A stretch of 64,000 nucleotides of DNA from a virus (taxonomy: Duplodnaviria > Caudoviricetes), in IMG/VR virus record IMGVR_UViG_3300020045_015293, positions 1-64,000 of that record. One strand, 5' to 3'. Of this stretch, positions 40,550-52,441 are shown piece by piece. The notes under the pieces are model-generated. The model had not been told where the DNA came from. It saw only the letters and a program-made list of their open reading frames with translations, and made no database searches. The position numbers and the translations under genes were made by a program. Within the stretch, counting starts at the first letter, position 1. The number at the start of each line of letters is the position of its first letter.

Positions 40550-41215
40550 ATGAAACAAACTGCATTTGATTTAAACAATTCTTATTTTATAAACACTACA
40601 TTTCGCAAAATGAGAATTCATGGAAAAGAATTTGATATTTTATCATTTCCAAGAAATGGTAATAATGTAAAAGTGGATGATGTCAAAAGTGTATTTAATG
40701 GTAAAAATACTATTTCAATTTATAACAATAATGGAAGGTGTATATCTGAAAATTTTAATATTAAAAAAAGTAAAAATGATGAGGGCCCATGGGAATTAGG
40801 TTGTCAAACCATTACAAAGCAAAATGTTAATAAACTAAGAAGTTTATTGTTTGAAACTAAACCAAAAGTAGCAGCTAAACCAAAAATTGTTAATAGAGTT
40901 TTTAATTTAAATACTAGGGATTTAAGAAATTCTAAAGTAATAATTGCTGAAACATTTGGTGCTAGAAAGAAAAATGTACCGGTATTATATTTTCCAAGAA
41001 GAAGAGAAGCGGTTTCATTAGATGAAGTTAGAAAAGTTTTAACTAATAGAAATAAAACAAGTATGCATACTTATACTTATAATACTAATGAAAAACAATT
41101 AAATTTTCATTTTAGTGAATTCCATGGTATAAGTAGAAAAAATGGTTTAAAAATTGGTTGTCAAAAAATTAATTCAAGAGTATTACAATCTTTTAGAAAA
41201 GCTATTGGATTATAA
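40550..41215 (+). CDS. Protein with two ~100-aa GCQ-motif repeats
   Basis: Internal duplication ending (L/I)GCQ..L. Confidence 0.7.
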   Translation: MKQTAFDLNNSYFINTTFRKMRIHGKEFDILSFPRNGNNVKVDDVKSVFNGKNTISIYNNNGRCISENFNIKKSKNDEGPWELGCQTITKQNVNKLRSLLFETKPKVAAKPKIVNRVFNLNTRDLRNSKVIIAETFGARKKNVPVLYFPRRREAVSLDEVRKVLTNRNKTSMHTYTYNTNEKQLNFHFSEFHGISRKNGLKIGCQKINSRVLQSFRKAIGL

Positions 41216-41232
41216 ATTAAAAAATAAAGTTT

Positions 41233-41886
41233 ATGTCAAAAATTATAACACTTCCAAACATAAAAATTAATAATAATTTAGGAACAATTGGTATTATAGA
41301 AGTAAGTATTAAGGGTAAAATTCATCAATGTATTCAATTTTCTTATAGATCTGATTGTATTAAAATTTCATCTGTAAAACAAATATTACAGGGAAAAATT
41401 AAAAAAAGGGTTACAACATATGATCGTTATGGTAATAAATATGATACTTATAATATAACAAATACTTCAAAAGGAATACATATAGGATGTCAATATATTC
41501 ATTCATCAGTAGTTAATAAACTTAAAACTTTACTTTTAGGTACAAATATAGAAGCAGTTAAAAAACAATTTTCATTAACATCATTTAATAGTAATGACTT
41601 AAGAAGAATTTCAATAATAAATGAAAAAGTATATCGTAAAGGAGTTTTTTCATGTATATATTTTCCACTAAGAGAGGACTATGTTTTATTAAATGATGTT
41701 AAATTAGTAATTCAAAATAATAAATTGTCTTTTATTAATACATATTATAAAAGAGGTAATATTTTAAGATTAAATGTAGCAAGAAAAATATATAGAAATT
41801 ATAAAGGAAACATTATATCCGTTGGATGTCAAGGTATACCTTCTTCAACATTAATTCAATTAAAACAATATTTTAAAATAAAATAA
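41233..41886 (+). CDS. Paralog with two GCQ-motif repeats
   Basis: HIGCQ and SVGCQ repeats. Confidence 0.7.
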   Translation: MSKIITLPNIKINNNLGTIGIIEVSIKGKIHQCIQFSYRSDCIKISSVKQILQGKIKKRVTTYDRYGNKYDTYNITNTSKGIHIGCQYIHSSVVNKLKTLLLGTNIEAVKKQFSLTSFNSNDLRRISIINEKVYRKGVFSCIYFPLREDYVLLNDVKLVIQNNKLSFINTYYKRGNILRLNVARKIYRNYKGNIISVGCQGIPSSTLIQLKQYFKIK

Positions 41887-41905
41887 CGGTTTTTAAAAAG
41901 TATAT

Positions 41906-41914
41906 ATATTTATA
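41906..41914 (+). promoter_or_regulatory. Representative of the ATATTTAT(A) motif (second, probably late, promoter class)
   Basis: Also near 12236, 18909, 36463, 43102, 47359, 51320, 59588, 63742; always intergenic. Confidence 0.6.
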
Positions 41915-41917
41915 GAT

Positions 41918-42022
41918 ATGAAAAATAAAATGTCATATAGATCCTTTAGTTGGTCAATTTGTCCCGGTGCACAACGCGTGCATGGAGAAGATACTAAGGG
42001 CTATAAAGATGTTATTGTATAA
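41918..42022 (+). CDS. Leader peptide 1 MKNKMSYRSFSWSICPGAQRVHGEDTKGYKDVIV
   Basis: Hand translation; follows ATATTTATA and precedes a terminator. Confidence 0.7.
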   Translation: MKNKMSYRSFSWSICPGAQRVHGEDTKGYKDVIV

Positions 42023-42047
42023 AACTATAAATTAACAATATTTTAAG

Positions 42048-42073
42048 AAGCCCATTGAAAAATGGGCTTTTTT
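42048..42073 (+). terminator. Intrinsic terminator (attenuator) ahead of tRNA block 1
   Basis: AAGCCCATT-GAAA-AATGGGCTT plus T tract. Confidence 0.85.
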
Positions 42074-42077
42074 ATTC

Positions 42078-42150
42078 GGTGACTAAGCTAATCTGGTGAA
42101 AGCGTATCCCTGAAGAGGATAAGAGTTCGGGTCGGAACCGAGAGTCACTG
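42078..42150 (+). tRNA. tRNA-Phe(GAA), atypical T-loop GTCGGAA
   Basis: Manual cloverleaf; loop CTGAAGA. Confidence 0.75.
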
Positions 42151-42297
42151 CAAAAATAAAAGTTAAAAGTTAATAGCGGTTCGCATTTAAATGGCAAGTA
42201 GTAGAGGTCCAAACTCATAAATCTATCCAACTCCTGAGGGCTGGAAGGTACCCAAGAGTAATATCAGGCAAGTTAAATGTACTTTTATTTTAAATAC

Positions 42298-42368
42298 GCG
42301 GGTATGGTGCAATGGTAGCATAAGTGATTCCAAACCACTTGATAAGAGTTCGAACCTTTTTATCCGTG
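42298..42368 (+). tRNA. tRNA-Trp(CCA)
   Basis: Manual cloverleaf; loop TTCCAAA. Confidence 0.9.
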
Positions 42369-42373
42369 CAAAT

Positions 42374-42446
42374 GACTCTATGGTGAAATTGAATATCATT
42401 CTTCTTTCCTAAAGAAGCGTTTCAGATTTGAATTCTGATAGAGTTA
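42374..42446 (+). tRNA. tRNA-Arg(CCT)
   Basis: Manual cloverleaf; loop TTCCTAA. Confidence 0.85.
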
Positions 42447-42455
42447 CTAAAATAT

Positions 42456-42528
42456 GGTTCCATGGTGAAATTGAATATCATTCTCGCCTTCTAAGCAAGA
42501 GTTTCGGGTTTAAATCCTGATGGAACTA
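42456..42528 (+). tRNA. tRNA-Arg(TCT)
   Basis: Manual cloverleaf; loop CTTCTAA. Confidence 0.85.
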
Positions 42529-42535
42529 CTAAAAT

Positions 42536-42608
42536 GGACTTATGGTGAAACAGAACATCACTCCACGCTACGGACGTGGCATTTCGGGTTTGAATCCTGA
42601 TAAGTCTA
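42536..42608 (+). tRNA. tRNA-Arg(ACG)
   Basis: Manual cloverleaf; loop CTACGGA. Confidence 0.87.
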
Positions 42609-42700
42609 CTAAAAGAGGAGCGGAAACGTACCATGAAATCCCGAAAGGGAGAATTGGGTCAGATCGATGGCTTTAAAAATTCTAACCTCTTTTTCAATAT

Positions 42701-42773
42701 GGCGGTATGTCCGAGCGATTATAGGTGCTAATCTGCAAAATTAGTTAGGTTGGTTTAACTCCAACTACCGCTT
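42701..42773 (+). tRNA. tRNA-Cys(GCA)
   Basis: Manual cloverleaf; loop CTGCAAA; U73. Confidence 0.85.
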
Positions 42774-42839
42774 CAAAAAATAAATTTTTTTATTCCAAAA
42801 AAAGAATTTAATTTTATATGTTCTTTGAAATTTAAATAT

Positions 42840-42912
42840 CTAGGTGTGGCCGAGATGGGAAGGCACTACTTTTGGGAAGTAGACCAAGCAGGATCGTCAC
42901 CTGTCACCTAGA
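42840..42912 (+). tRNA. tRNA-Pro(TGG)
   Basis: Manual cloverleaf; loop TTTGGGA. Confidence 0.85.
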
Positions 42913-42985
42913 CATAACTACCTAGTCCGACTTAACTTTGAATTTAATTATGTTAAATTTAGGGGATTGTGAGGGGTAGTTAAAT

Positions 42986-43060
42986 GGGGATATAGTATAA
43001 ATTGGAATAGTATGGTGGTTTTGCATACCATCGATCCGGAATCGTGGTCCGGTATCTCCA
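42986..43060 (+). tRNA. tRNA-Ala(TGC)
   Basis: Manual cloverleaf; G3:U70. Confidence 0.85.
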
Positions 43061-43122
43061 CAAAAGTTCTTTGAAAATATTCGTTTTTTATTTTTTCCAC
43101 ATATTTATACCAAATATAAATT

Positions 43123-44037
43123 ATGGGAAGATTAAAATATACTAAAGAATTACTTGAAATAAAAGTTAAAGAAAGTTTTTCATTAAGAGAATTAATGGAA
43201 AAATTAGGGATGAATTATTATTCAAGTCAAAAACATATAAGAAATTTACTTGAAGCTTATAATTTAAATACTTCACATTTTATTGGAATTAAGATACAAA
43301 AACGTAATAATGAAGAAATATTTAAAACTGATTCTAAAGTAAATAGATCAACTTTAAGAAAAAGAATTATTGATAATAATTTAATTCCATATATTTGTCA
43401 AAATTGTAATTGTAATGATGAATGGATGGGTAAAAAAATGCCTTTTATATTAGATCATATTAATGGAATAGGAGAGGATAATAGAATTGAAAATTTAAGA
43501 TGGCTTTGTTCAAATTGTGATTCAATACAGGATACTTATAAATCAAAAAATAAAAATTCGAGTAAATCAAGAAAAAGAATAATTAATAAAATAAACAGAG
43601 AATCTGAAATATTAAATATTAAATTAAATAAACATAAAATTACAGAATTAAAAAATAATGAATTAAAACAACAAATACTAAATTCAAGAGTAGAATTTAA
43701 TGAAATGGGGTGGGGAGTAGAATTAAGTAAAATATTAAATATGACTCCTCAAAATTGTTTGAGAATAACTAAAAAATTATTACCTGAATTTTATAAAGAA
43801 AAATGTTGGAAAAAATTTGAAGATAAAAATAAATTTAAAAGACAAAAAGATTTAGAAATTGAAAAATCAAAATATAATTTAGAAAAAATAAAGAAAAATA
43901 TTAACCTTATAAAAGCATCAAAAATTAATTTTAAAGAAAGAGGTTGTTTTGTAAAAGCTAATCAAATATTAGGATTTAAACAAACTACAGATGCTATTAA
44001 ATGGTTAAAAAGAAATCTCCCCGAATTAATAAATTAA
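43123..44037 (+). mobile_element. Free-standing HNH homing endonuclease inside the tRNA array
   Basis: CQNC..LDHING..DNRIENLRWLCSNCD. Confidence 0.85.
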
Positions 44038-44109
44038 AAACAAAAACATGAAAAATTCCAACAGCCTAACGCTTTAAGGTTACTGACAAAACAGTAGCCC
44101 AGCGTAAAA

Positions 44110-44280
44110 ATGGCTAAAAAAGAAGGCGGTGGTAAAGGTAAAAAAGGTAATAAAAAATACGGCCGCGAAATTAAAAAAAGATCAAATAGAGGAAGTACAA
44201 TTTCTTTATTTGTTCGCAACAGAATTACTGCTGAAGAATATTTTAGAAAAGCAGGATTATCTCTAAAAAGAGATAAATAA
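44110..44280 (+). CDS. 56-aa Lys/Gly/Arg-rich basic protein (below the ORF-track cutoff)
   Basis: Hand translation MAKKEGGGKGKKGNKKYGR.. Confidence 0.6.
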   Translation: MAKKEGGGKGKKGNKKYGREIKKRSNRGSTISLFVRNRITAEEYFRKAGLSLKRDK

Positions 44281-44283
44281 ACA

Positions 44284-44423
44284 GGCTCCGGAAGTCGTGA
44301 GTTCGAGTCTCACCTTGGCCCGAAAGGGCTGAGTAGCTCAGTTGGTAGAGCGCCGGACTAGGTTATCAATTAACGAGGACGTTAGTGCACGCCTACAATG
44401 CAGTAATGCAAGAGGATAACCGC
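44284..44423 (+). ncRNA. Circularly permuted tRNA-like RNA (YrlA-type Y RNA candidate)
   Basis: Order T arm, loop-closed acceptor stem, D arm; open anticodon stem TCCGG/CCGGA. Confidence 0.75.
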
Positions 44424-44428
44424 AAATT

Positions 44429-44501
44429 GGCCCTATAGCTCAGTTGAGAAGAGCTCTGGTTTTACATACCAGGTGCACCCGTTCGAATCGGGTTAGGGCT
44501 A
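44429..44501 (+). tRNA. tRNA-Val(TAC)
   Basis: Manual cloverleaf; loop TTTACAT. Confidence 0.88.
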
Positions 44502-44543
44502 CTTGAATTTTCGAAAAGATCTTTGAAATAAATAACGTTCTTA

Positions 44544-44681
44544 ATCAGGAATAGATTTTACAAAAAATGGGTGGGGTAATAAATTATCAAAAATAATAAA
44601 TAGATCTCCTGCTTGGACTTTAAAATGGGTGAAAAGTAATATTCCAGAAATTGAAAAAATTTGTTTTAAACATTCTTTTTA
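44544..44681 (+). pseudogene. Relic of a homing-endonuclease C-terminal repeat
   Basis: SGIDFTKNGWGNKLSKII..KWVKSNIPE resembles the C-terminal repeats of 43123-44037; no start codon. Confidence 0.6.
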
Positions 44682-44684
44682 AAA

Positions 44685-44758
44685 CGAGGTAACGCATAAA
44701 TGATGGTGCACCTGCCTTCCAAGTAGGAATAGAGCCGGTTTGATCCCGGTTACCTTGA
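44685..44758 (+). tRNA. tRNA-Gly(TCC)
   Basis: Manual cloverleaf; loop CTTCCAA. Confidence 0.8.
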
Positions 44759-44864
44759 CAACATACACATTCCCCTTCTCATAAGAACAGGGTGCTCAGA
44801 GTGTGTTTTTTATATGCCGAGTTGAAAGGGAATCCACAGTGGGGACACTGCCCCTCGGCTCCAT

Positions 44865-44937
44865 GCGAATATAGCACAATGGCTCAGTGTACCGGCTTGC
44901 CAAGTCGGTGATGACAGTTCGAATCTGTTTATTCGCT
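44865..44937 (+). tRNA. tRNA-Gly(GCC)
   Basis: Manual cloverleaf; loop TTGCCAA; U73. Confidence 0.9.
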
Positions 44938-45309
44938 CATAAATAAAAAATTATGATTATTCTTTCTGGTTGATGTCTTGACTCTGTAAAAAGAATCAAT
45001 GATGAATCAAAACAAACAAATTCGACTTTGGAGAGTCGAGTGGGTCCATAAAAATGGATACCGTGCCCCTCATTATTGGGTTGAGGCAAAAGTAGTAATA
45101 AGGAAAGGTAATGTGAATGAAAAGGAAACAAGAAAAAATGCAGTAAAAGCTGCAAAACAACACTCAAGATTAGGTGATTTTCCTAAAACTTGGTATTGTA
45201 AAATTACAGATGTTAGTGAATAACTAATATCTTAAAAATAGATTCCACGCTTCCCATCTCGAAGGATAATGAGAAGAATAATACGTCTTTCAAGAATCTA
45301 TTTTTATAT

Positions 45310-45381
45310 TGCCACTTGGTGTAATGCGTAGCACAAGAGTTTTTGGAGCTCTTTGTTTCAGTTCGAATCTGAAAGTGGTGA
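45310..45381 (+). tRNA. tRNA-Gln(TTG)
   Basis: Manual cloverleaf; loop TTTTGGA. Confidence 0.87.
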
Positions 45382-45389
45382 CTTAAAAT

Positions 45390-45473
45390 GGAGGATAGCA
45401 TGCAAGGTGCATAACTGGCTTTGAACCCCAGGCCAACGCTGATCGCGTTGAGGTTTCGATACTTTATCCTCCG
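45390..45473 (+). tRNA. tRNA-Ser(TGA)
   Basis: Long variable arm CAACGC/GCGTTG; loop TTTGAAC. Confidence 0.78.
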
Positions 45474-45476
45474 CAA

Positions 45477-45668
45477 AAATAAAAAATGAGCTATCGCTAT
45501 ATTAATATAGAGGAAACTCAGGACTCCGTTGTTTAATTTGGAAGACGAAAGTCGTTATACCAAAGAGGGAGAAACTTAAAACAGTCTATATGGATGAACA
45601 ACATGGACAAGGTAAAGGATTAGACAAATGATAGCATAAAACAGAAACCTGGTTACTATTTTTTATTT
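45477..45668 (+). ncRNA. rnpB: Minimal RNase P RNA (catalytic domain, S-domain reduced to one hairpin)
   Basis: GAGGAAACTCAGG and ACAGAAACCTGGTTAC form P4 with bulged U; P1, P2, P3, P5, P6, P7 and L15 GGU all identifiable. Confidence 0.85.
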
Positions 45669-45671
45669 TAT

Positions 45672-45742
45672 CCCGCTATGGTGAAATGATATCACTTCAG
45701 TTTGTGGATCTGAAATTATAAGTTTGAATCTTATTAGTGGGA
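45672..45742 (+). tRNA. tRNA-His(GTG), without G-1:C73
   Basis: Manual cloverleaf; loop TTGTGGA. Confidence 0.8.
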
Positions 45743-45751
45743 CATTAAAAA

Positions 45752-45842
45752 GGAAGTTAAACCCATGATGGCATTGGGGAATACCTGCTAAGTATTTTAT
45801 CGGCTATAAACCGATACGTGAATTCGAGTTTCACAACTTCCG
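45752..45842 (+). tRNA. tRNA-Ser(GCT)
   Basis: Class II cloverleaf; loop CTGCTAA. Confidence 0.9.
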
Positions 45843-45847
45843 CATAT

Positions 45848-45926
45848 TGGATAGTACCGAGCCATCCTGATAAGATGGATAATCGTAGCGGTGTTGTAAA
45901 CGTGGGTTCAAATCCCTCCTATCCAA
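45848..45926 (+). tRNA. Atypical tRNA-Ile(GAT)-like RNA with no D arm
   Basis: Acceptor TGGATAG/CTATCCA, arm CCATC-CTGATAA-GATGG, T arm present. Confidence 0.5.
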
Positions 45927-47384
45927 CTAAACTTCTGAGTCATAAACAAAAAAACCACTCGGGTTCAAGGGAACTATACACCATGCAGAGTAAGTATTTG
46001 CAAATGCTTGACTCATAAGAAAACCTTAAAGTATAGTAGTTGTGAGGGTGACACAAACTTAGAAGTTTAACTTATTTAATTTTTAGTTATGAAATATAAA
46101 AAACTTAAAGTTCCTGAAACATCATCTTGGGATAGAAAACCAACATTTTTTAGACGCTATTTCCCAATTTGGTTAAAAGAATTTGTTGAAGGAATAAAAA
46201 ATATTATTAGATGGATTCCAACTATATATAAAGATAAAGATTGGGATCAATATTTCATAATGAAATTACTTCAAAAGAAAATTGAACATCAAAGAGAATA
46301 TTTAATTTATCATAATCGTCACATAGGAATAGAACAAGATAATAGAAATATGACTTGGGTTCTAAATTTAATTGAGTACCAAATCAATGATTATTATGAA
46401 TTAGAAAAATATGATTATGTTGAATTTGGAAAAAAATTACTTGGACCTTATAAATCTGAGAAATTAGATAATTATTTAGTAAAATATCCAGGAACTATTC
46501 GAAGAGTAAAACAAAAATATCCTAATATAAACTTTGATAATAAAGATAGACTTTCATTGTATGTAGGTATATATAATCAACAAAAATGTAATCATTTAAT
46601 TTGGAAAATAATGGAAGAAAAAAGTGGGCAATGGTGGGATTAATACTTTTTTCCAAAGTTTTTTTCTTACCTTTATGCTAGTAAAAAGGTTATGAAATGA
46701 AAGTAATTCCTAAAATAGAACCTAAAAAAGTTTATACTTTACGAACTTTTTATGATGCAGGTATAATTCATATACATACTTTAGTTTATTTAAGATTTCA
46801 ACATATATTTAATTCTAATATATATTATATACCACATCGTACTAGTGAGTATTTAAAATCATTTAAATTTTTAAATTTAAATTCAGCAAAAAATGCACCA
46901 ATACCAAGTAACCCTGAAATTAAATCATTTGAAAAAGATATTGAAATTAAAATTTGTGGGGAAGTATTTGAAGCTGAAAGAATCGAAGCAGATACTAAAT
47001 TAATATCAGATATTATTGGGGAAAATGGTATTATTTTATTATAATTTTTTAAAATGAATGTAATTCCTGAAACATTTTTGAGAAAGTTAACTATTAGGAA
47101 CAATGCAATAGTTATCCCTAAGAAAATAGATGAATTAAAAGACAGATCTAATGAATATAAACAATTATTTGAAATGCGTTTACTTTCATTTGTTCATGAT
47201 GGAACAATAACAAGAGCGGTGTGTGAATTGTTAAATGATCTTCCTTATGATCATAATTTTAATATTGCACAAGAAAATAGAGAAAAAGGTAGTATTATTT
47301 CATTACCAATAAGTATTTTAAAGTTTGTTAAAGAACCTGAGGTTTCCTAAATTTCGATATATTTATATACAACAAAAAATTATT

Positions 47385-47474
47385 ATGTTTTTACAAAGTT
47401 TGATAAATACAAATATTCTTACGTTAGATTATATGGATAATCTAAATGAGGATAAATCTGTTACATCAGGCTAG
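47385..47474 (+). CDS. Leader peptide 2 MFLQSLINTNILTLDYMDNLNEDKSVTSG, amber stop
   Basis: Hand translation; follows ATATTTATA. Confidence 0.7.
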   Translation: MFLQSLINTNILTLDYMDNLNEDKSVTSG

Positions 47475-47498
47475 ACCAAATCAATATATACCATTCGT

Positions 47499-47533
47499 AA
47501 AAGCCTGATGCCCCCGAAGCGTTAGGCTTTTTT
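47499..47533 (+). terminator. Intrinsic terminator (attenuator) ahead of tRNA block 2
   Basis: AAAGCCTGATGC-CCCCGAA-GCGTTAGGCTTT plus T tract; competing 9-bp antiterminator 47464-72/47502-10. Confidence 0.85.
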
Positions 47534-48325
47534 AGTTCTTTGAAAATATTTTTTTACCCAAAATTTTTTACATAATTTTATATTATAAAATATAAGGTTA
47601 TGAGTCAAGTAATAAATAAAAAAATCAACCTAAATTTAGTAGGTTTAGATGGAAATGCATTTTCTATTATGGGAGCATTTCAAAAACAAGCCCGTAAAGA
47701 AGGATGGAGTAAAGAGGAAATTGATGCTGTGATAACAGAGATGCAATCTGGAGATTATAATCATTTGTTACAAACAGCAATGGCACATTGTGAAGATCCA
47801 GAAGATGAAGAAATGGATGAAAATTATGTAACTGATGAAGATGGAGATTTTAATTATTAAAATACAAATTTATGTATTTAAATACACATAAAGATCGTGG
47901 TGAATCAACTTACCAATTAGCCAATAATGTAGGCGATAGAGGAGGATGGGTTAAATTTGATTGGGATAAAGATGTTCAAGCTGTTAAACCACATTATGAA
48001 AATACAATTGTTGTATTAAAAAATGGTACACATTATTTGTTATTTGGAAGAGGATATGGTGTATAAAAATTAATTTTTATGGCTAAATTATATACAATAG
48101 AAGAAATTAAAACATATATAACATCACAAGATTCACTTGGTGATGCCTTATATAACTTGAATGAAGATAATGTTGATAAAGCAGTATGGGAAGATAAATT
48201 TCAAGCTATAAAAGAAGAAATAATGGATGATAGTTTTGATGGTAATGAAGATGAATTAATGAGAGAAACAGAAGAACTATTTAAGAAAAGATATAAATTT
48301 GATTATTACGATAAATATTAAAAAT

Positions 48326-48397
48326 GGACTGGTAACTTAAAGGCAAAGTAGCATCCTGTTAAGATGAAGAGTGTGGTATCGTGATCCACCCAGTCCG
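48326..48397 (+). tRNA. tRNA-Asn(GTT)
   Basis: Manual cloverleaf; loop CTGTTAA. Confidence 0.82.
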
Positions 48398-48480
48398 CAA
48401 AAAAATTAATAGTACTCATAGTTTAAAACTGTTATAAAGGAGTAGTTAAATTAGAATATGGAGACCATATTTAGCTATTA

Positions 48481-48491
48481 GTTCTTTAACA
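48481..48491 (+). promoter_or_regulatory. boxA-like antitermination element GTTCTTT(G/A)A; representative copy
   Basis: Also near 42820, 43066, 47535, 49457, 50954, 62741, with a variant at 62944; confined to the RNA island. Confidence 0.6.
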
Positions 48492-48509
48492 TTATAAATT
48501 TTAAAAAAA

Positions 48510-48580
48510 GGGATAACGTCCAGGGCAGATCACAACGACTGTAAATCGTAGGTGTTGAGTTTCGATTACTCATTATCCCA
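48510..48580 (+). tRNA. tRNA-Tyr(GTA), short variable loop
   Basis: Loop CTGTAAA; weak D arm. Confidence 0.7.
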
Positions 48581-48706
48581 CTTAAATAAAAAATTCTTTT
48601 TCCAAAATTATTTGTTTAATTTTATAAAAGTAGAAATTTTTCAAAAACCAAACTGTTATGTTGGGAAAAAATATCTAAACAATATTTTTGACTAAGTAAA
48701 CATAAC

Positions 48707-49042
48707 ATGAAAGTAATATCTCAATCCTATTTTAGAAATCAATATATTCGAGAAATAATTGATAACTTTAATTGGGAAAGAATTCATAAAGTGATGGTTT
48801 TTCTTCAATGGAAATATTTAAATGAAGAAATTCCTGAAATTGATGATTTAAAATTATTAAGTAAAAATTTACTTGACAATATTTGGTTATCAACAACTAA
48901 ACAACAGAATGAAACATGGAGCATAAAATCAGGTGGTTTTAAAGCAACAGCTTCATACAATTCAAATAAAAAAAGAATTGACTTTTTAAAATTGGAATTT
49001 ATACTTAGTGATTATTATAAAGAAGAAAATGATGAAGGATAA
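48707..49042 (+). CDS. Hypothetical protein, paralog of 3712-4077
   Basis: IIDNFNWERIHKVMVFLQW. Confidence 0.7.
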   Translation: MKVISQSYFRNQYIREIIDNFNWERIHKVMVFLQWKYLNEEIPEIDDLKLLSKNLLDNIWLSTTKQQNETWSIKSGGFKATASYNSNKKRIDFLKLEFILSDYYKEENDEG

Positions 49043-49902
49043 AGTAACTATAGTAACAGCTGATTGGAAAGATATTGATGGATTAGCTAATGCTTTTAAA
49101 AAAGCTATAAGAAAATTAGGAGCTCATATTTATAATCATCCTGATTTTGAAGGTAGCGATACTTATGGTTTTATTGTTAGTGATAAAAAATTGAGTAGAA
49201 AGAAAATTAAAGATAATTATTGTATTCCAAAAGAAGAAATAGATTATATTTATCCAATTGGAGCATAAAAAACATGAATAGGGAAGAAAGAGAAGAAAGA
49301 ATACAACGTGCCAAAGAAGAATTTGGTGAACAAGTTGTAGCAGAAGTTAGAGAAGTTGTATCAATGAGTGATCCTGATGGAGCTTGGAGTACATATAGAG
49401 ATTTTGAAAAGTATGATCATTGTGCATGTATTGAAATGATTTATTTTGAATAAAAAGTTCTTTGAAGACAAGAACCTGATAACTAACAGGCACTTTTAAA
49501 AGTTAGGAAACAGGGAATATGCGGTGCCAGCATGTGGATAGCTACTAAATAATATTAAAAGTAGTTCCGGTGAAAGGATGTTTCACAACCAATCACTGAA
49601 AAAATAAAAATGAATAATAGAACGTTTTGGACGTCTGAACGACAGCTCGAAAGAGTTATTACGGTTCCCTATTATTCATTAACTTGATTAAAATTATTAG
49701 GTGGTAATGAGTAGAGTTACATCGCGTGGAATGGTTCCACACCCAACTCAGGATTAGGCTCTGCCGTTCAATTCGGCCAGTTAATCTCTACCAAATTTTC
49801 CCCTAAAATAATTATAAATTATTGGATGGTTATAAATCAGTTTCATCGCTAATGGTCAATTTGCAAAAAATACTGATTTAAATTTTCCTCCAAAATTAAT
49901 TT

Positions 49903-49975
49903 GGCCCTGTCGAATAATGTGTTAGTTCGTTGCCCTTTCACGGCAAAAATTTCGGTTCAAATCCGTGCGGGGCTA
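49903..49975 (+). tRNA. tRNA-Glu(TTC)
   Basis: Manual cloverleaf; loop CTTTCAC. Confidence 0.87.
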
Positions 49976-49997
49976 CTAAAAGAAAAAGGTTGCGTAA

Positions 49998-50585
49998 ATG
50001 AATATATTAAAATTAGATGATTTACCTCTATATGACTTAGGTAATACAATTCAAATATCAGGAATGATATTACAAGGTAATGATAAAACTTACAATGTAT
50101 TTTTTCCAGATAAAAAAATTGAGAATCCTGAATTAGTAGAAGTAAATGAAGATGAATGGAAAAAATTGTTGCTACAATTAGATACTTTAGAAACAGTTTT
50201 ATTTCCAGGTAATCCAGGTGCTAAAATAGTTGTACGTAAATCTCAACGTATAATCGAATCAGCAATGATTTGGAAAGTTTTTAGGAGAGATAATTATACT
50301 TGTCAGTATTGTGGTGCAAGAGATAAACCATTGTCAGTTGATCATGTAGTTCTTTGGGAAGATATGGGTGGAACTGTTGAAGAAAATTTATTAACTGCAT
50401 GTTCTGCATGTAATATGAAAAGAGGTAATATGAGGTTTTTAGATTGGTTGGATAGCGATTATTATAATAAATGTTTGAAAAATTTTGGTAATGAAGATCA
50501 ACAATATAATCAAGATAAAAAATTGTTAGATTTTTGGATAATAGCAAGAGATTTACCATTACGTACAAATAAAAGAGGGAGGTAA
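49998..50585 (+). CDS. HNH endonuclease domain protein
   Basis: RRDNYTCQYCG..VDHV..NLLTACSACN. Confidence 0.88.
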   Translation: MNILKLDDLPLYDLGNTIQISGMILQGNDKTYNVFFPDKKIENPELVEVNEDEWKKLLLQLDTLETVLFPGNPGAKIVVRKSQRIIESAMIWKVFRRDNYTCQYCGARDKPLSVDHVVLWEDMGGTVEENLLTACSACNMKRGNMRFLDWLDSDYYNKCLKNFGNEDQQYNQDKKLLDFWIIARDLPLRTNKRGR

Positions 50586-50876
50586 TTATGAATACTATAT
50601 TAATAATACTTTGTAGTTGTTTATTTCTTATTCAGTTAGGATTAATATTAAGATATTTTAATATTGAAAAAAATAATGATTGGAATTTTTTAGGACAAGG
50701 AGGATTGGTAAATTTAATTGCATACCCTATAATGGTATGGATAATGTTTTTAATGTGGAAAGAAAGTGAGAATTATTATAAAAAAATAGTTGAAAAAAAT
50801 AAAATAGAACAAAAATATTCACCAACTTATACTTCAGAAAAGGGGGATACTTTGTTTACAAGAGTAAAATAAATAT

Positions 50877-50944
50877 GGAGGGGTAGCTCAGAGTAGAGCA
50901 CTGTCTAAACAACAGGGGTCGGTAATTCAGTTTGCCCCCTTCCG
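50877..50944 (+). pseudogene. Degenerate tRNA (4-bp anticodon stem, 6-nt T-loop)
   Basis: Acceptor and D arm intact; anticodon arm 15 nt. Confidence 0.5.
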
Positions 50945-51145
50945 CAATAATTAGTTCTTTAAAATATGGAGATGAATGTTTGTAATAGAACATTTTGGTT
51001 ATTCGGTTAATCCATCTCCACTACATGCCGGGAAAGCAAAAACATACTGTTTTAAACTTTCCCCGAAAGGTGGTAACTAAACAGTTACATCGCAATACAA
51101 TCAACATTTGTTAAGATTCCCGCAAGGGTCCCGGCACCATTTTGA

Positions 51146-51237
51146 AACATTCGCGCCTGATGGTTAATGATCATTAAGACTGTGAGGCTAGCAGTTGACC
51201 CCAACACTTAAGTCAGTGGGGTATGGCGACGAATGTT
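51146..51237 (+). ncRNA. Multi-branched RNA with a GNCGAANG helix (Y RNA candidate)
   Basis: Closing stem AACATTCG-CGCC/GGCG-A-CGAATGTT. Confidence 0.5.
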
Positions 51238-51241
51238 AAAC

Positions 51242-51316
51242 AGCCACGTAGTTTACTGTGTGTAATCGGGAAATTGTCGATTTCCGTCGGGGCGAGTTCG
51301 ATTCTCGTCGTGGCTG
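51242..51316 (+). tRNA. tRNA-Asp(GTC)
   Basis: Manual cloverleaf; loop TTGTCGA. Confidence 0.8.
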
Positions 51317-51484
51317 CATATATTTATACACCCACAGAATGAATCTAACTTAAGGGTACTAGTAAAAACTTAAGGTAATGCGTTTGAAATTTGGTTCAGG
51401 TTTCGCCTGTGTGGGTGTATAAAAATCTCAATGTGTAAATTAACTAGTGCATGACACCGTAGCGTAGAAAGTTGAGATGAATAT

Positions 51485-51558
51485 ACTGATATAGCTCAGA
51501 GGTTTAGAGCAGGATGCTTATACCATCAAGGTCGGGATTTCAAAATTCTCTATCAGTA
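51485..51558 (+). tRNA. tRNA-Ile(TAT)
   Basis: Manual cloverleaf; loop CTTATAC. Confidence 0.8.
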
Positions 51559-51575
51559 CAACAAAATTTTTATAT

Positions 51576-51655
51576 CGTGGGGGAGTGGAAAGGACACACA
51601 AACCATTCAAGCCTCATAAGCTTTGAGATAGCCAGTTCGATTCTGGTCCCCGCAA
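51576..51655 (+). tRNA. tRNA-Met(CAT), C1:A72, enlarged D arm
   Basis: Loop CTCATAA; canonical T arm. Confidence 0.65.
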
Positions 51656-51739
51656 CAAACTATTCTTATAATAGTATGAATTGGAAAATAAATTTCCAAT
51701 TAAAAAACTCCCGAATTCATTCTTGATATAGGGGAGTTA

Positions 51740-51811
51740 TGGCGCAGCCTCAGGTGAGGAATTTTGGCTCATATCCTAAATTAGACATGGTTCAATACCA
51801 GTATGCGCTAC
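51740..51811 (+). tRNA. Atypical CAT-anticodon tRNA-like RNA
   Basis: Acceptor TGGCGCA/TGCGCTA; loop CTCATAT; weak T stem. Confidence 0.45.
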
Positions 51812-51953
51812 ACCAGATGTAATAGTGTAAGCTAGAAGTACATCAGCAATTGGGATCTTACAATCCGTGAATTGTGGTTTAGGTTAACACGAAGGTAACG
51901 AAGTGCTTTAAGTCACCTAGCAGTTAGAATACCACTAGAAGTTCTAACAAAAT

Positions 51954-52028
51954 GCCTCTTTAGTAGTAATTGCAGCAGCTATCCGCACTTGTAATGCGGG
52001 GGTAACAGTTTGAATCTGTTAAGGGGCT
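51954..52028 (+). tRNA. tRNA-Thr(TGT)
   Basis: Manual cloverleaf; loop CTTGTAA. Confidence 0.82.
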
Positions 52029-52088
52029 CAAAGAAATTAATATAAGTTTTATGACCCCCCTGGTTACAAACAAAATATTAGTTTCTTT

Positions 52089-52440
52089 ACCGGTTACGGG
52101 TTTATTTTGTTGGTTTTTATCCCGTAAAAATTAAAAGAAAAACCAATAGAATTAAACCCGATGTTAAACGCTGTTATAAAATTTTAGCGATGAAAGTTAA
52201 ATATGTGAAATTACAAAGCGGAGAGGTAATAATGTTTCCTCCCGTTATTGAACACGATACATTCAAATACCTGAACCCAATAACGGCAGGATTTTGTTGC
52301 ATCGGAAATGATAAAGTAGAGTGCTTTGGAGAAAGTTACTCACTCAAATTGAAGGCAGACGAAAAGCAAGATACATTAGATGCAACAAAACATTATTTTG
52401 GAATAGAGGCGATGATAAAAATTTTATAATTGCGTTTAAC
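52089..52440 (+). mobile_element. attC-like hairpin plus GTT..AAC inverted-repeat-flanked gene cassette (ORF 52190-52429)
   Basis: Arms 52097-117/52139-160; 23-bp IR 52163-185/52418-440. Confidence 0.55.
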
Positions 52441-52441
52441 A

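Follow-up and report, generated by a model that had tools for sequence, protein, structure and literature searches.

Does the short open reading frame (ORF) that lies directly ahead of the first tRNA block of a large AT-rich phage control the transcription of that block? A sequence-only reading had proposed that it does, as a leader-peptide attenuator, and our computational follow-up supports this reading in silico by composition tracking, by the joint change of antiterminator and terminator, and by permutation tests. Judging from sequence, we put at roughly 0.6 the probability that the element is a ribosome-mediated leader-peptide transcription attenuator gating the first tRNA block.

The window analyzed here, a stretch of 64,000 nucleotides, opens an IMG/VR virus record of 88.6 kb that is estimated to be about half complete. 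Its GC content is about 22%, every gene lies on the + strand, and the gene content includes a family B DNA polymerase, a Cpn60 chaperonin and a TROVE/Ro60-like protein. The DNA polymerase is at most 32% identical to the polymerase of any GenBank phage, and a blastn search with positions 41200-43200 against GenBank phages gave no match. No relatives were found through the flanking proteins (41233-41886 and 46089-46643) or through a 22-mer of the apical hairpin, and a 32-mer specific to the tRNA-Phe of the window, when looked for in metagenomes, was not found. The family B polymerase led to only two short contigs, one of which extends into a tRNA array. Twelve related contigs were reached via the TROVE protein, all with large tRNA arrays adjoining the TROVE gene, and further contigs were reached via a conserved stretch of tRNA-Phe. 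In several of the TROVE-linked contigs (L012-L017), a tmRNA gene lies inside the tRNA array.

The leader and the tRNA block behind it

The unit begins with the promoter-like motif ATATATTTATA (41904-41914, + strand), of which the window holds five exact copies, all on the + strand, versus 1.45 expected. The first 8 nt of the motif resemble the Bacteroidota -7 box TAnnTTTG, and the leader mRNA may be leaderless, since the ATG lies only 3 nt after the motif. The leader ORF (41918-42022, + strand) has 34 codons followed by TAA and uses 19 of the 20 amino-acid kinds, with Leu absent; the frame is open in only 5.7% of shuffles of the leader's own bases. The idea that the ORF is a pseudo-tRNA was dropped, as there is no tRNA-like match. 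The motif, the ORF, an intrinsic terminator and the gene for tRNA-Phe are packed into one tight unit, with about 175 nt from promoter to terminator.

The first gene behind the terminator, and thus the first that would be regulated, is tRNA-Phe(GAA) (42078-42150, + strand), which is recognized by Rfam with 41.2 bits and by ARAGORN at a relaxed threshold; the default ARAGORN run misses it. It begins 5 nt after the U-rich tail of the terminator, and there is no room for a promoter between the two. This gene opens tRNA block 1 (42078-45926, + strand), which contains 15 tRNA genes of 12 kinds and is interrupted by an HNH endonuclease gene and small structured RNAs. The block comprises tRNAs for Phe, Trp, Arg (three genes), Cys, Pro, Ala, Val, Gly (two genes), Gln, His and Ser(GCU), together with a 79-nt gene (45848-45926, + strand; Rfam 34.3 bits) whose anticodon loop is read as GAU. 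The 79-nt gene occupies the place of tRNA-Ile(GAU) in relatives, after His and Ser(GCU), and the count of 12 kinds rests on counting it as Ile(GAU). The HNH endonuclease gene (43123-44037) splits the block between Ala and Val and looks like a mobile insertion, because the orthologous array of L013 is continuous at that place. It has its own promoter-like motif (43099), which, by its position, could independently drive the second half of the block.

The amino-acid roster of block 1 reappears in the leader. Codons 8-23 (41939-41986, + strand; 16 codons) specify all and only the 12 kinds of block 1, exactly as had been claimed, and this is the sole run in the six frames of the window that covers 12 of 12. 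The ORF, this core from Arg8 to Gly23 and the RNA pairings described below were likewise all found where the sequence-only reading had placed them. With anticodons read by hand, 13-14 of the 16 core codons are directly read by block-1 tRNAs; the two Arg codons call for two different Arg tRNAs, and the two Gly codons for the two Gly tRNAs. The codons that lack a direct block-1 reader are Ser TCC and TCA, as the sole confident Ser tRNA is GCU, and arguably CCC. Within the core, every kind has between one and three codons, and tandem codon runs are absent. The response to the loss of one tRNA may therefore be weak. Of the 34 leader residues, 13 are of kinds that block 1 lacks (Met, Lys, Asn, Tyr, Glu, Asp and Thr). 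The GC-rich codons that had been described as unusual for this genome are indeed rare in its long ORFs: among the synonymous codons for the same residue, TCC, CCC, CGC and GTG have shares of 3-5% each, AAG has 7% and GGC 2%. All six fall in paired segments of the 1:2 hairpin.

Several other features lie inside the block. The stretch 45389-45476 is probably a degenerate tRNA-Ser(UGA), which lies between Gln and His, as Ser(UGA) does in relatives. Its acceptor pairing has 7 bp, and its UGA anticodon loop is closed by a C-C mismatch; its variable arm is long, its T arm is weak, and neither ARAGORN nor Rfam calls it. Such a tRNA would read the leader codon TCA. The next 194-nt stretch (45478-45671) matches the bacterial RNase P class A model over its full length at 48 bits, against a gathering score of 100; the tRNA block may harbor a strongly reduced RNase P RNA here. 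Additionally, a match to Y RNA-like RNA (YrlA) at 44270-44372 scores 40.7 bits, below threshold, within the tRNA block, and the TROVE/Ro60-like protein gene (57438-59003) follows 13 kb downstream of it.

Statistics of the match

The strength of the match depends on how much freedom of choice is allowed. When the 48 nt of the core were shuffled, an "all and only" outcome arose in 5e-6 of the shuffles, a figure that ignores the choice of core and block. In base shuffles of the whole leader that kept an open frame, coverage and in-block count were at least as good as in the real leader in a fraction of 0.003, and of the windows of equal length taken from the phage's own proteins, 0.37% include all 12 kinds. 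The permutation test that had been suggested as a check thus excludes base composition as the cause, and a GC-rich core alone is rejected as the source of the match by these own-composition shuffles (P = 0.003). When the choice was opened to every contiguous tRNA block and to windows anywhere in the six frames of the 88-kb genome, a compact match of at least 12 kinds arose in 46-57% of random tRNA orders, and the real tRNA order also gives an unrelated compact match inside a protein gene at 47711. The match in the window therefore draws its weight solely from two facts: the ORF stands immediately before its own block, and relatives show the pattern again. Taken alone, it is moderately significant, suggestive but not decisive; the relatives decide the matter.

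Predicted RNA structures of the leader

Based on folding predictions, the leader RNA can form three mutually exclusive structures in a trp-like arrangement, as had been proposed for the pairings 1:2, 2:3 and terminator 3:4. The 1:2 hairpin, or anti-antiterminator (41936-42005, + strand), has a computed energy of -23.1 kcal/mol and is part of the minimum-energy fold (z = -4.15). Its 5' strand corresponds to codons 7-11, and its 3' strand holds all of the sequence GGGCU. In the predicted antiterminator 2:3 (41998-42053, + strand; -13.0 kcal/mol), the same GGGCU (41998-42002) pairs with AGCCC (42049-42053). The intrinsic terminator 3:4 (42045-42075, + strand; -15.4 kcal/mol) has a 12-bp stem, a 4-nt loop and a U run. 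It was missed by a simple terminator scan and was found by a custom scan combined with folding; between 41000 and 56000, it is one of only two canonical terminators, the other lying at 47499-47531, and block 1 is enclosed by the two.

The objection that the 2:3 helix has only 5 bp is correct for its core, but this core is the base of a three-tier stem of -13.0 kcal/mol. Above the 5-bp core, the composite has another tier of 5 bp and then an A/U hairpin in which the stop codon lies. This three-tier stem is the minimum-energy fold of 41990-42058, whereas the bare helix is worth -5.9 kcal/mol. As a duplex alone, the 5-bp core reaches P = 0.053, and it is the weakest antiterminator core among the modules examined.

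The effect of a translating ribosome was modeled by folding nascent transcripts under a 30-nt ribosome mask. The antiterminator is kept with the A site at codons 1-28 and lost at codons 29-35. In this crude footprint model, the 2:3-permissive zone also includes codons 2-7 and 24-28, which do not belong to the roster. In equilibrium folding with ribosome masks, the terminator probability is near 1 everywhere, and the full-length RNA always folds the terminator. As the device would be kinetic, equilibrium folds are uninformative for the switch.

Sister modules in this phage and in relatives

A second module of the same kind lies in the window ahead of tRNA block 2 (47357-47545, + strand), with motif, mini-ORF, antiterminator and terminator. 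Its 29-codon ORF (47385-47474) ends in a TAG stop, its terminator lies at 47499-47531, and its 9-bp antiterminator pairs 47463-47471 with 47502-47510 and overlaps the last codons and the stop. The second leader is complementary to the first in its amino-acid set: block-exclusive residues stand at 19:12 in leader 1 versus 7:19 in leader 2 (P = 0.016). As a separate observation, block 2 contains a tRNA with anticodon CUA (52442-52513), while the second leader stops at TAG. Suppression of this TAG would bring the ribosome into the terminator stem, a possible feed-forward loop.

Eleven modules, each with a promoter motif, a small ORF, a terminator and a tRNA block, were examined, and nine of them were composition-tested. 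They come from the window (two), L013/L015/L061, L018/L019, L020/L022/L023 (two), L059, L063 and G002, that is, from the clade and from other phages. In L013 and L015, a 44-codon ORF and a terminator come after the same motif, and the orthologous tRNA-Phe begins 7 nt further on. Their array is undivided, with tRNA-Ile(GAU) followed directly by tRNA-Asn and 20 kinds in total, and their leader holds all 20 kinds. The homologous leader of L061 (47 codons, 19 kinds) also stands before the orthologous tRNA-Phe, and the nearly complete genomes L018 and L019 (162 and 173 kb) have one leader each, of 51 or 46 codons and 20 kinds. In contrast, the giant phages L020, L022 and L023 have a split array and two leaders, whose exclusive residues stand at 30:7 versus 9:18 (P = 2e-4). 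The first of these leaders covers 13 of the 13 kinds of its block and is without Cys, Glu and Leu, as is the block itself; the second covers 9 of 9. In L059, the block has six kinds, which account for 21 of the 29 leader residues, compared with 0.28 in the background (P = 9e-7). The leader of L063 covers 10 of the 11 kinds of its block. Undivided arrays thus have leaders with 19-20 kinds, whereas split arrays have partitioned leaders. The expectation that leader composition tracks tRNA gene content in related phages was checked and holds: over the nine modules, with open shuffles of each leader's own bases, the combined P is 8e-13. Moreover, in these arrays all canonical terminators directly before tRNA blocks have such an ORF, whereas other terminators follow ordinary genes. 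In the giant relatives G006 and G007, the first tRNA group starts from a plain promoter, without a leader.

The structural part of the module recurs as well. In 11 of the 11 modules, the segment that pairs best with the 5' arm of the terminator is found in the last part of the leader ORF, in a range from 19 nt upstream to 1 nt downstream of where the stop codon starts. The sequence of the antiterminator strand differs wherever the terminator differs, so the stem co-variation that had been proposed as a check in related phages is seen across the modules as a joint change of the two elements. The antiterminator has 8-10 bp with shuffle P ≤0.0035 in six modules and is weaker in L013, L018, L019, L020_B and the window leader.

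No close relative of the window leader was found; against L013 and L061, it aligns poorly except at the motif, the U run and the tRNA. Only the leaders of L018 and L019 can be aligned with each other, at 74% DNA identity. They differ by 5 synonymous and 16 non-synonymous codons, with the differences spread evenly over codon positions, and the frame is kept because the two indels are 3 and 12 nt long. Both leaders keep 20 kinds; one has its single Trp codon within the 12-nt insertion, the other at a different place. From this comparison, the open frame and the roster are conserved and the peptide is not, as would be predicted for a leader peptide but not for a small protein or a purely non-coding RNA.

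Two further observations concern the arrays of these relatives. The array of L063 includes, at about 6155 with tRNA-Phe on the + strand, a tRNA with anticodon UUA that resembles an ochre suppressor. In L019 (4200-4312) and L018 (4614-4727), a 113-nt tRNA-like gene has an insertion after the anticodon region, possibly an intron.

Alternative explanations

One alternative, which we consider unlikely, is a constitutive leaky terminator that ends a short transcript or an upstream operon, with the tRNAs supplied by unregulated read-through and processing and the composition match due to chance. In its favor, compact roster matches arise in about half of random tRNA orders when block and frame are left free, and such chance matches are present elsewhere in the genome, as in the protein gene at 47711; the 5-bp core of 2:3 (P = 0.053) and the dominance of the terminator at equilibrium point the same way. 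This explanation meets its difficulty in position and recurrence. The ORF directly precedes its own block, with P = 0.003 given its own base composition; architecture and match recur in nine independently tested modules (combined P = 8e-13); every canonical terminator directly before a tRNA block has such an ORF; and the orthologous position in L013 and L061 holds a leader with 20 and 19 kinds, respectively.

The strong fold (z = -4.15) and the coincidence of rare codons with stems would also suit a structured non-coding leader or small RNA, in which the ORF is incidental and the terminator is overcome for timing by a phage or host antitermination factor, as in lambda N/Q or put-type systems. 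Phages often time gene expression by antitermination, and small stable RNAs are known within the T4 tRNA cluster. We nevertheless regard this as quite improbable, because it accounts neither for frames that are kept open through in-frame indels nor for a composition that tracks the tRNA genes behind the leader. Nor does it explain why the frame is open in all modules but in only 3-10% of shuffles, and no Rfam family reaches its threshold. An ordinary small-protein gene that has its own promoter and terminator and stands before the tRNA array by chance would account for a promoter-like motif spaced as at real genes, for the open frame and the terminator, and for a diverse, protein-like composition of 19 kinds. 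It seems very improbable to us, given that the leader peptides of relatives are unalignable across lineages, including the window versus L013/L061, that L018 and L019 are without purifying selection on the peptide (16 non-synonymous versus 5 synonymous differences, no third-position bias), and that the gap between the terminator and tRNA-Phe is too short for a separate tRNA promoter.

Proposed mechanism

We infer leader translation, the direction of the switch and its physiological trigger; the attenuator would work as follows. Transcription would be initiated from the conserved motif, with a start probably at the ATG or close to it, and the 34 leader codons would be translated behind the moving RNA polymerase. 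A fast ribosome would reach the stop-codon region and cover the middle of the antiterminator; with the antiterminator masked, the terminator would form and transcription would end 5 nt before tRNA-Phe. In the case of no ribosome, 1:2 would hold region 2, and the terminator would form too. A ribosome lagging within about codons 4-23 would open 1:2 and free region 2, and, as 2:3 forms and the terminator cannot, the tRNA block would be transcribed. The phage thus probably makes block-1 tRNAs when decoding runs slow. Because each kind is represented only one to three times, the leader may integrate decoding time over the whole set and act less as a sensor of one tRNA. The outcome would be a negative feedback that holds the supply of phage tRNAs. 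The trigger could be a codon-usage mismatch, host shut-off or tRNA-cutting nucleases; of these, anticodon nucleases as the trigger are a speculation.

For the modules as a whole, we lean slightly towards the broader view that unrelated phage lineages gate tRNA blocks by leader-peptide attenuators, whose rosters co-evolve with the array, split or complete as it is, and that these act as decoding-speed integrators for a homeostatic, on-demand supply of tRNAs. If this view is right, it would define a new regulatory class for tRNA genes and would extend trp-type attenuation from enzymes to the tRNAs themselves. The structure of transcription units in phage tRNA arrays would become readable from sequence alone, as leader composition would predict which tRNA genes are co-transcribed. 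The phage would directly measure decoding capacity and top up only what is slow, which bears on why large phages carry tRNA arrays and how these arrays are expressed. The device would connect phage tRNAs with codon-usage mismatch and with the host's attack on tRNAs in a way that can be tested. Its span of about 175 nt, promoter and terminator included, would also make it a compact natural part for control that responds to tRNAs.

Comparison with known systems

Multivalent attenuators are known from enterobacteria, where the ilvGMEDA leader contains Leu, Val and Ile codons and the thr leader contains Thr and Ile codons. Like these, the window element has a short leader ORF, which we take to be translated, placed after a promoter and before an intrinsic terminator; three helices 1:2, 2:3 and 3:4 (here predicted) that exclude one another; leader codons for at least two amino acids that are linked to the genes downstream of the terminator; and a peptide that is not conserved. 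Unlike in the ilv and thr systems, the genes that would be regulated here are 15 tRNA genes rather than those of biosynthetic enzymes, and the element is phage-borne. Furthermore, 12 kinds (up to 20 in relatives) are each named one to three times, whereas the enterobacterial leaders name a few kinds in tandem runs, and the likely signal here is total decoding time, not starvation for a single amino acid. Set against attenuators of the trp/his/ilv/thr type in general, the locus shows a short ORF, an intrinsic terminator, a predicted antiterminator, a 1:2 helix in the ORF and enrichment of roster codons; tandem runs of regulatory codons and downstream genes for amino-acid biosynthesis are absent.

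Overall geometry and relative helix energies resemble those of the trp leader (trpL; RF00513), with a weak full-length alignment at 41945-42075, but tandem Trp codons are lacking and the target genes differ. Membership in the Rfam family Trp_leader (RF00513) was rejected, as the score is 22.3 bits versus a gathering score of 41. The Rfam matches to STnc430, Trp_leader, PyrR, sroB and Yfr13 are all below their gathering scores and are driven by the hairpin and the terminator. T-box riboswitches of Gram-positive aminoacyl-tRNA synthetase and amino-acid genes are similar in that transcription attenuation reports the state of tRNA. A T-box, however, directly binds one uncharged tRNA via a specifier codon, without translation, whereas an ORF with a codon roster is conserved here; no T-box covariance-model match was obtained in E-value scans of 41000-56000 and 41850-42300.

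Further counterparts are the sister modules, which share with the window element a promoter, a mini-ORF, an antiterminator strand in the 3' part of the ORF, a terminator and a tRNA block, and in which composition follows the block. Among them, the window copy has the shortest antiterminator core, and its leader has diverged from the orthologous leaders of L013 and L061 and lists only the 12 kinds of its split array. In full-text literature searches, we found no description of leader-peptide control of tRNA genes, in agreement with the sequence-only reading, which knew of none.

The promoter-like motif and other small ORFs

In the relatives L012-L019 and L061, the 10-mer TATATTTATA occurs at a fixed distance of 3 or 14 nt before the ATG of genes and tRNA leaders. 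The sites of this 10-mer in the window are 12233, 41904, 47357, 51318 and 59586, and a spacing of 3 nt implies that the transcripts would be leaderless. In the giant relatives, TATATTTG precedes a tRNA. This pattern fits a Bacteroidota-type -7 promoter box, which hints at the phylum of the host.

Two other short ORFs of the window deserve mention. A 39-codon ORF (774-893) just upstream of the DNA polymerase gene holds all 20 amino-acid kinds. At 59586-59640, in a region of small structured RNAs near the Ro60-like gene, the motif is followed by an 11-codon ORF whose first four codons are those of the leader at 41918, with 92% identity between the two over 24-26 nt.
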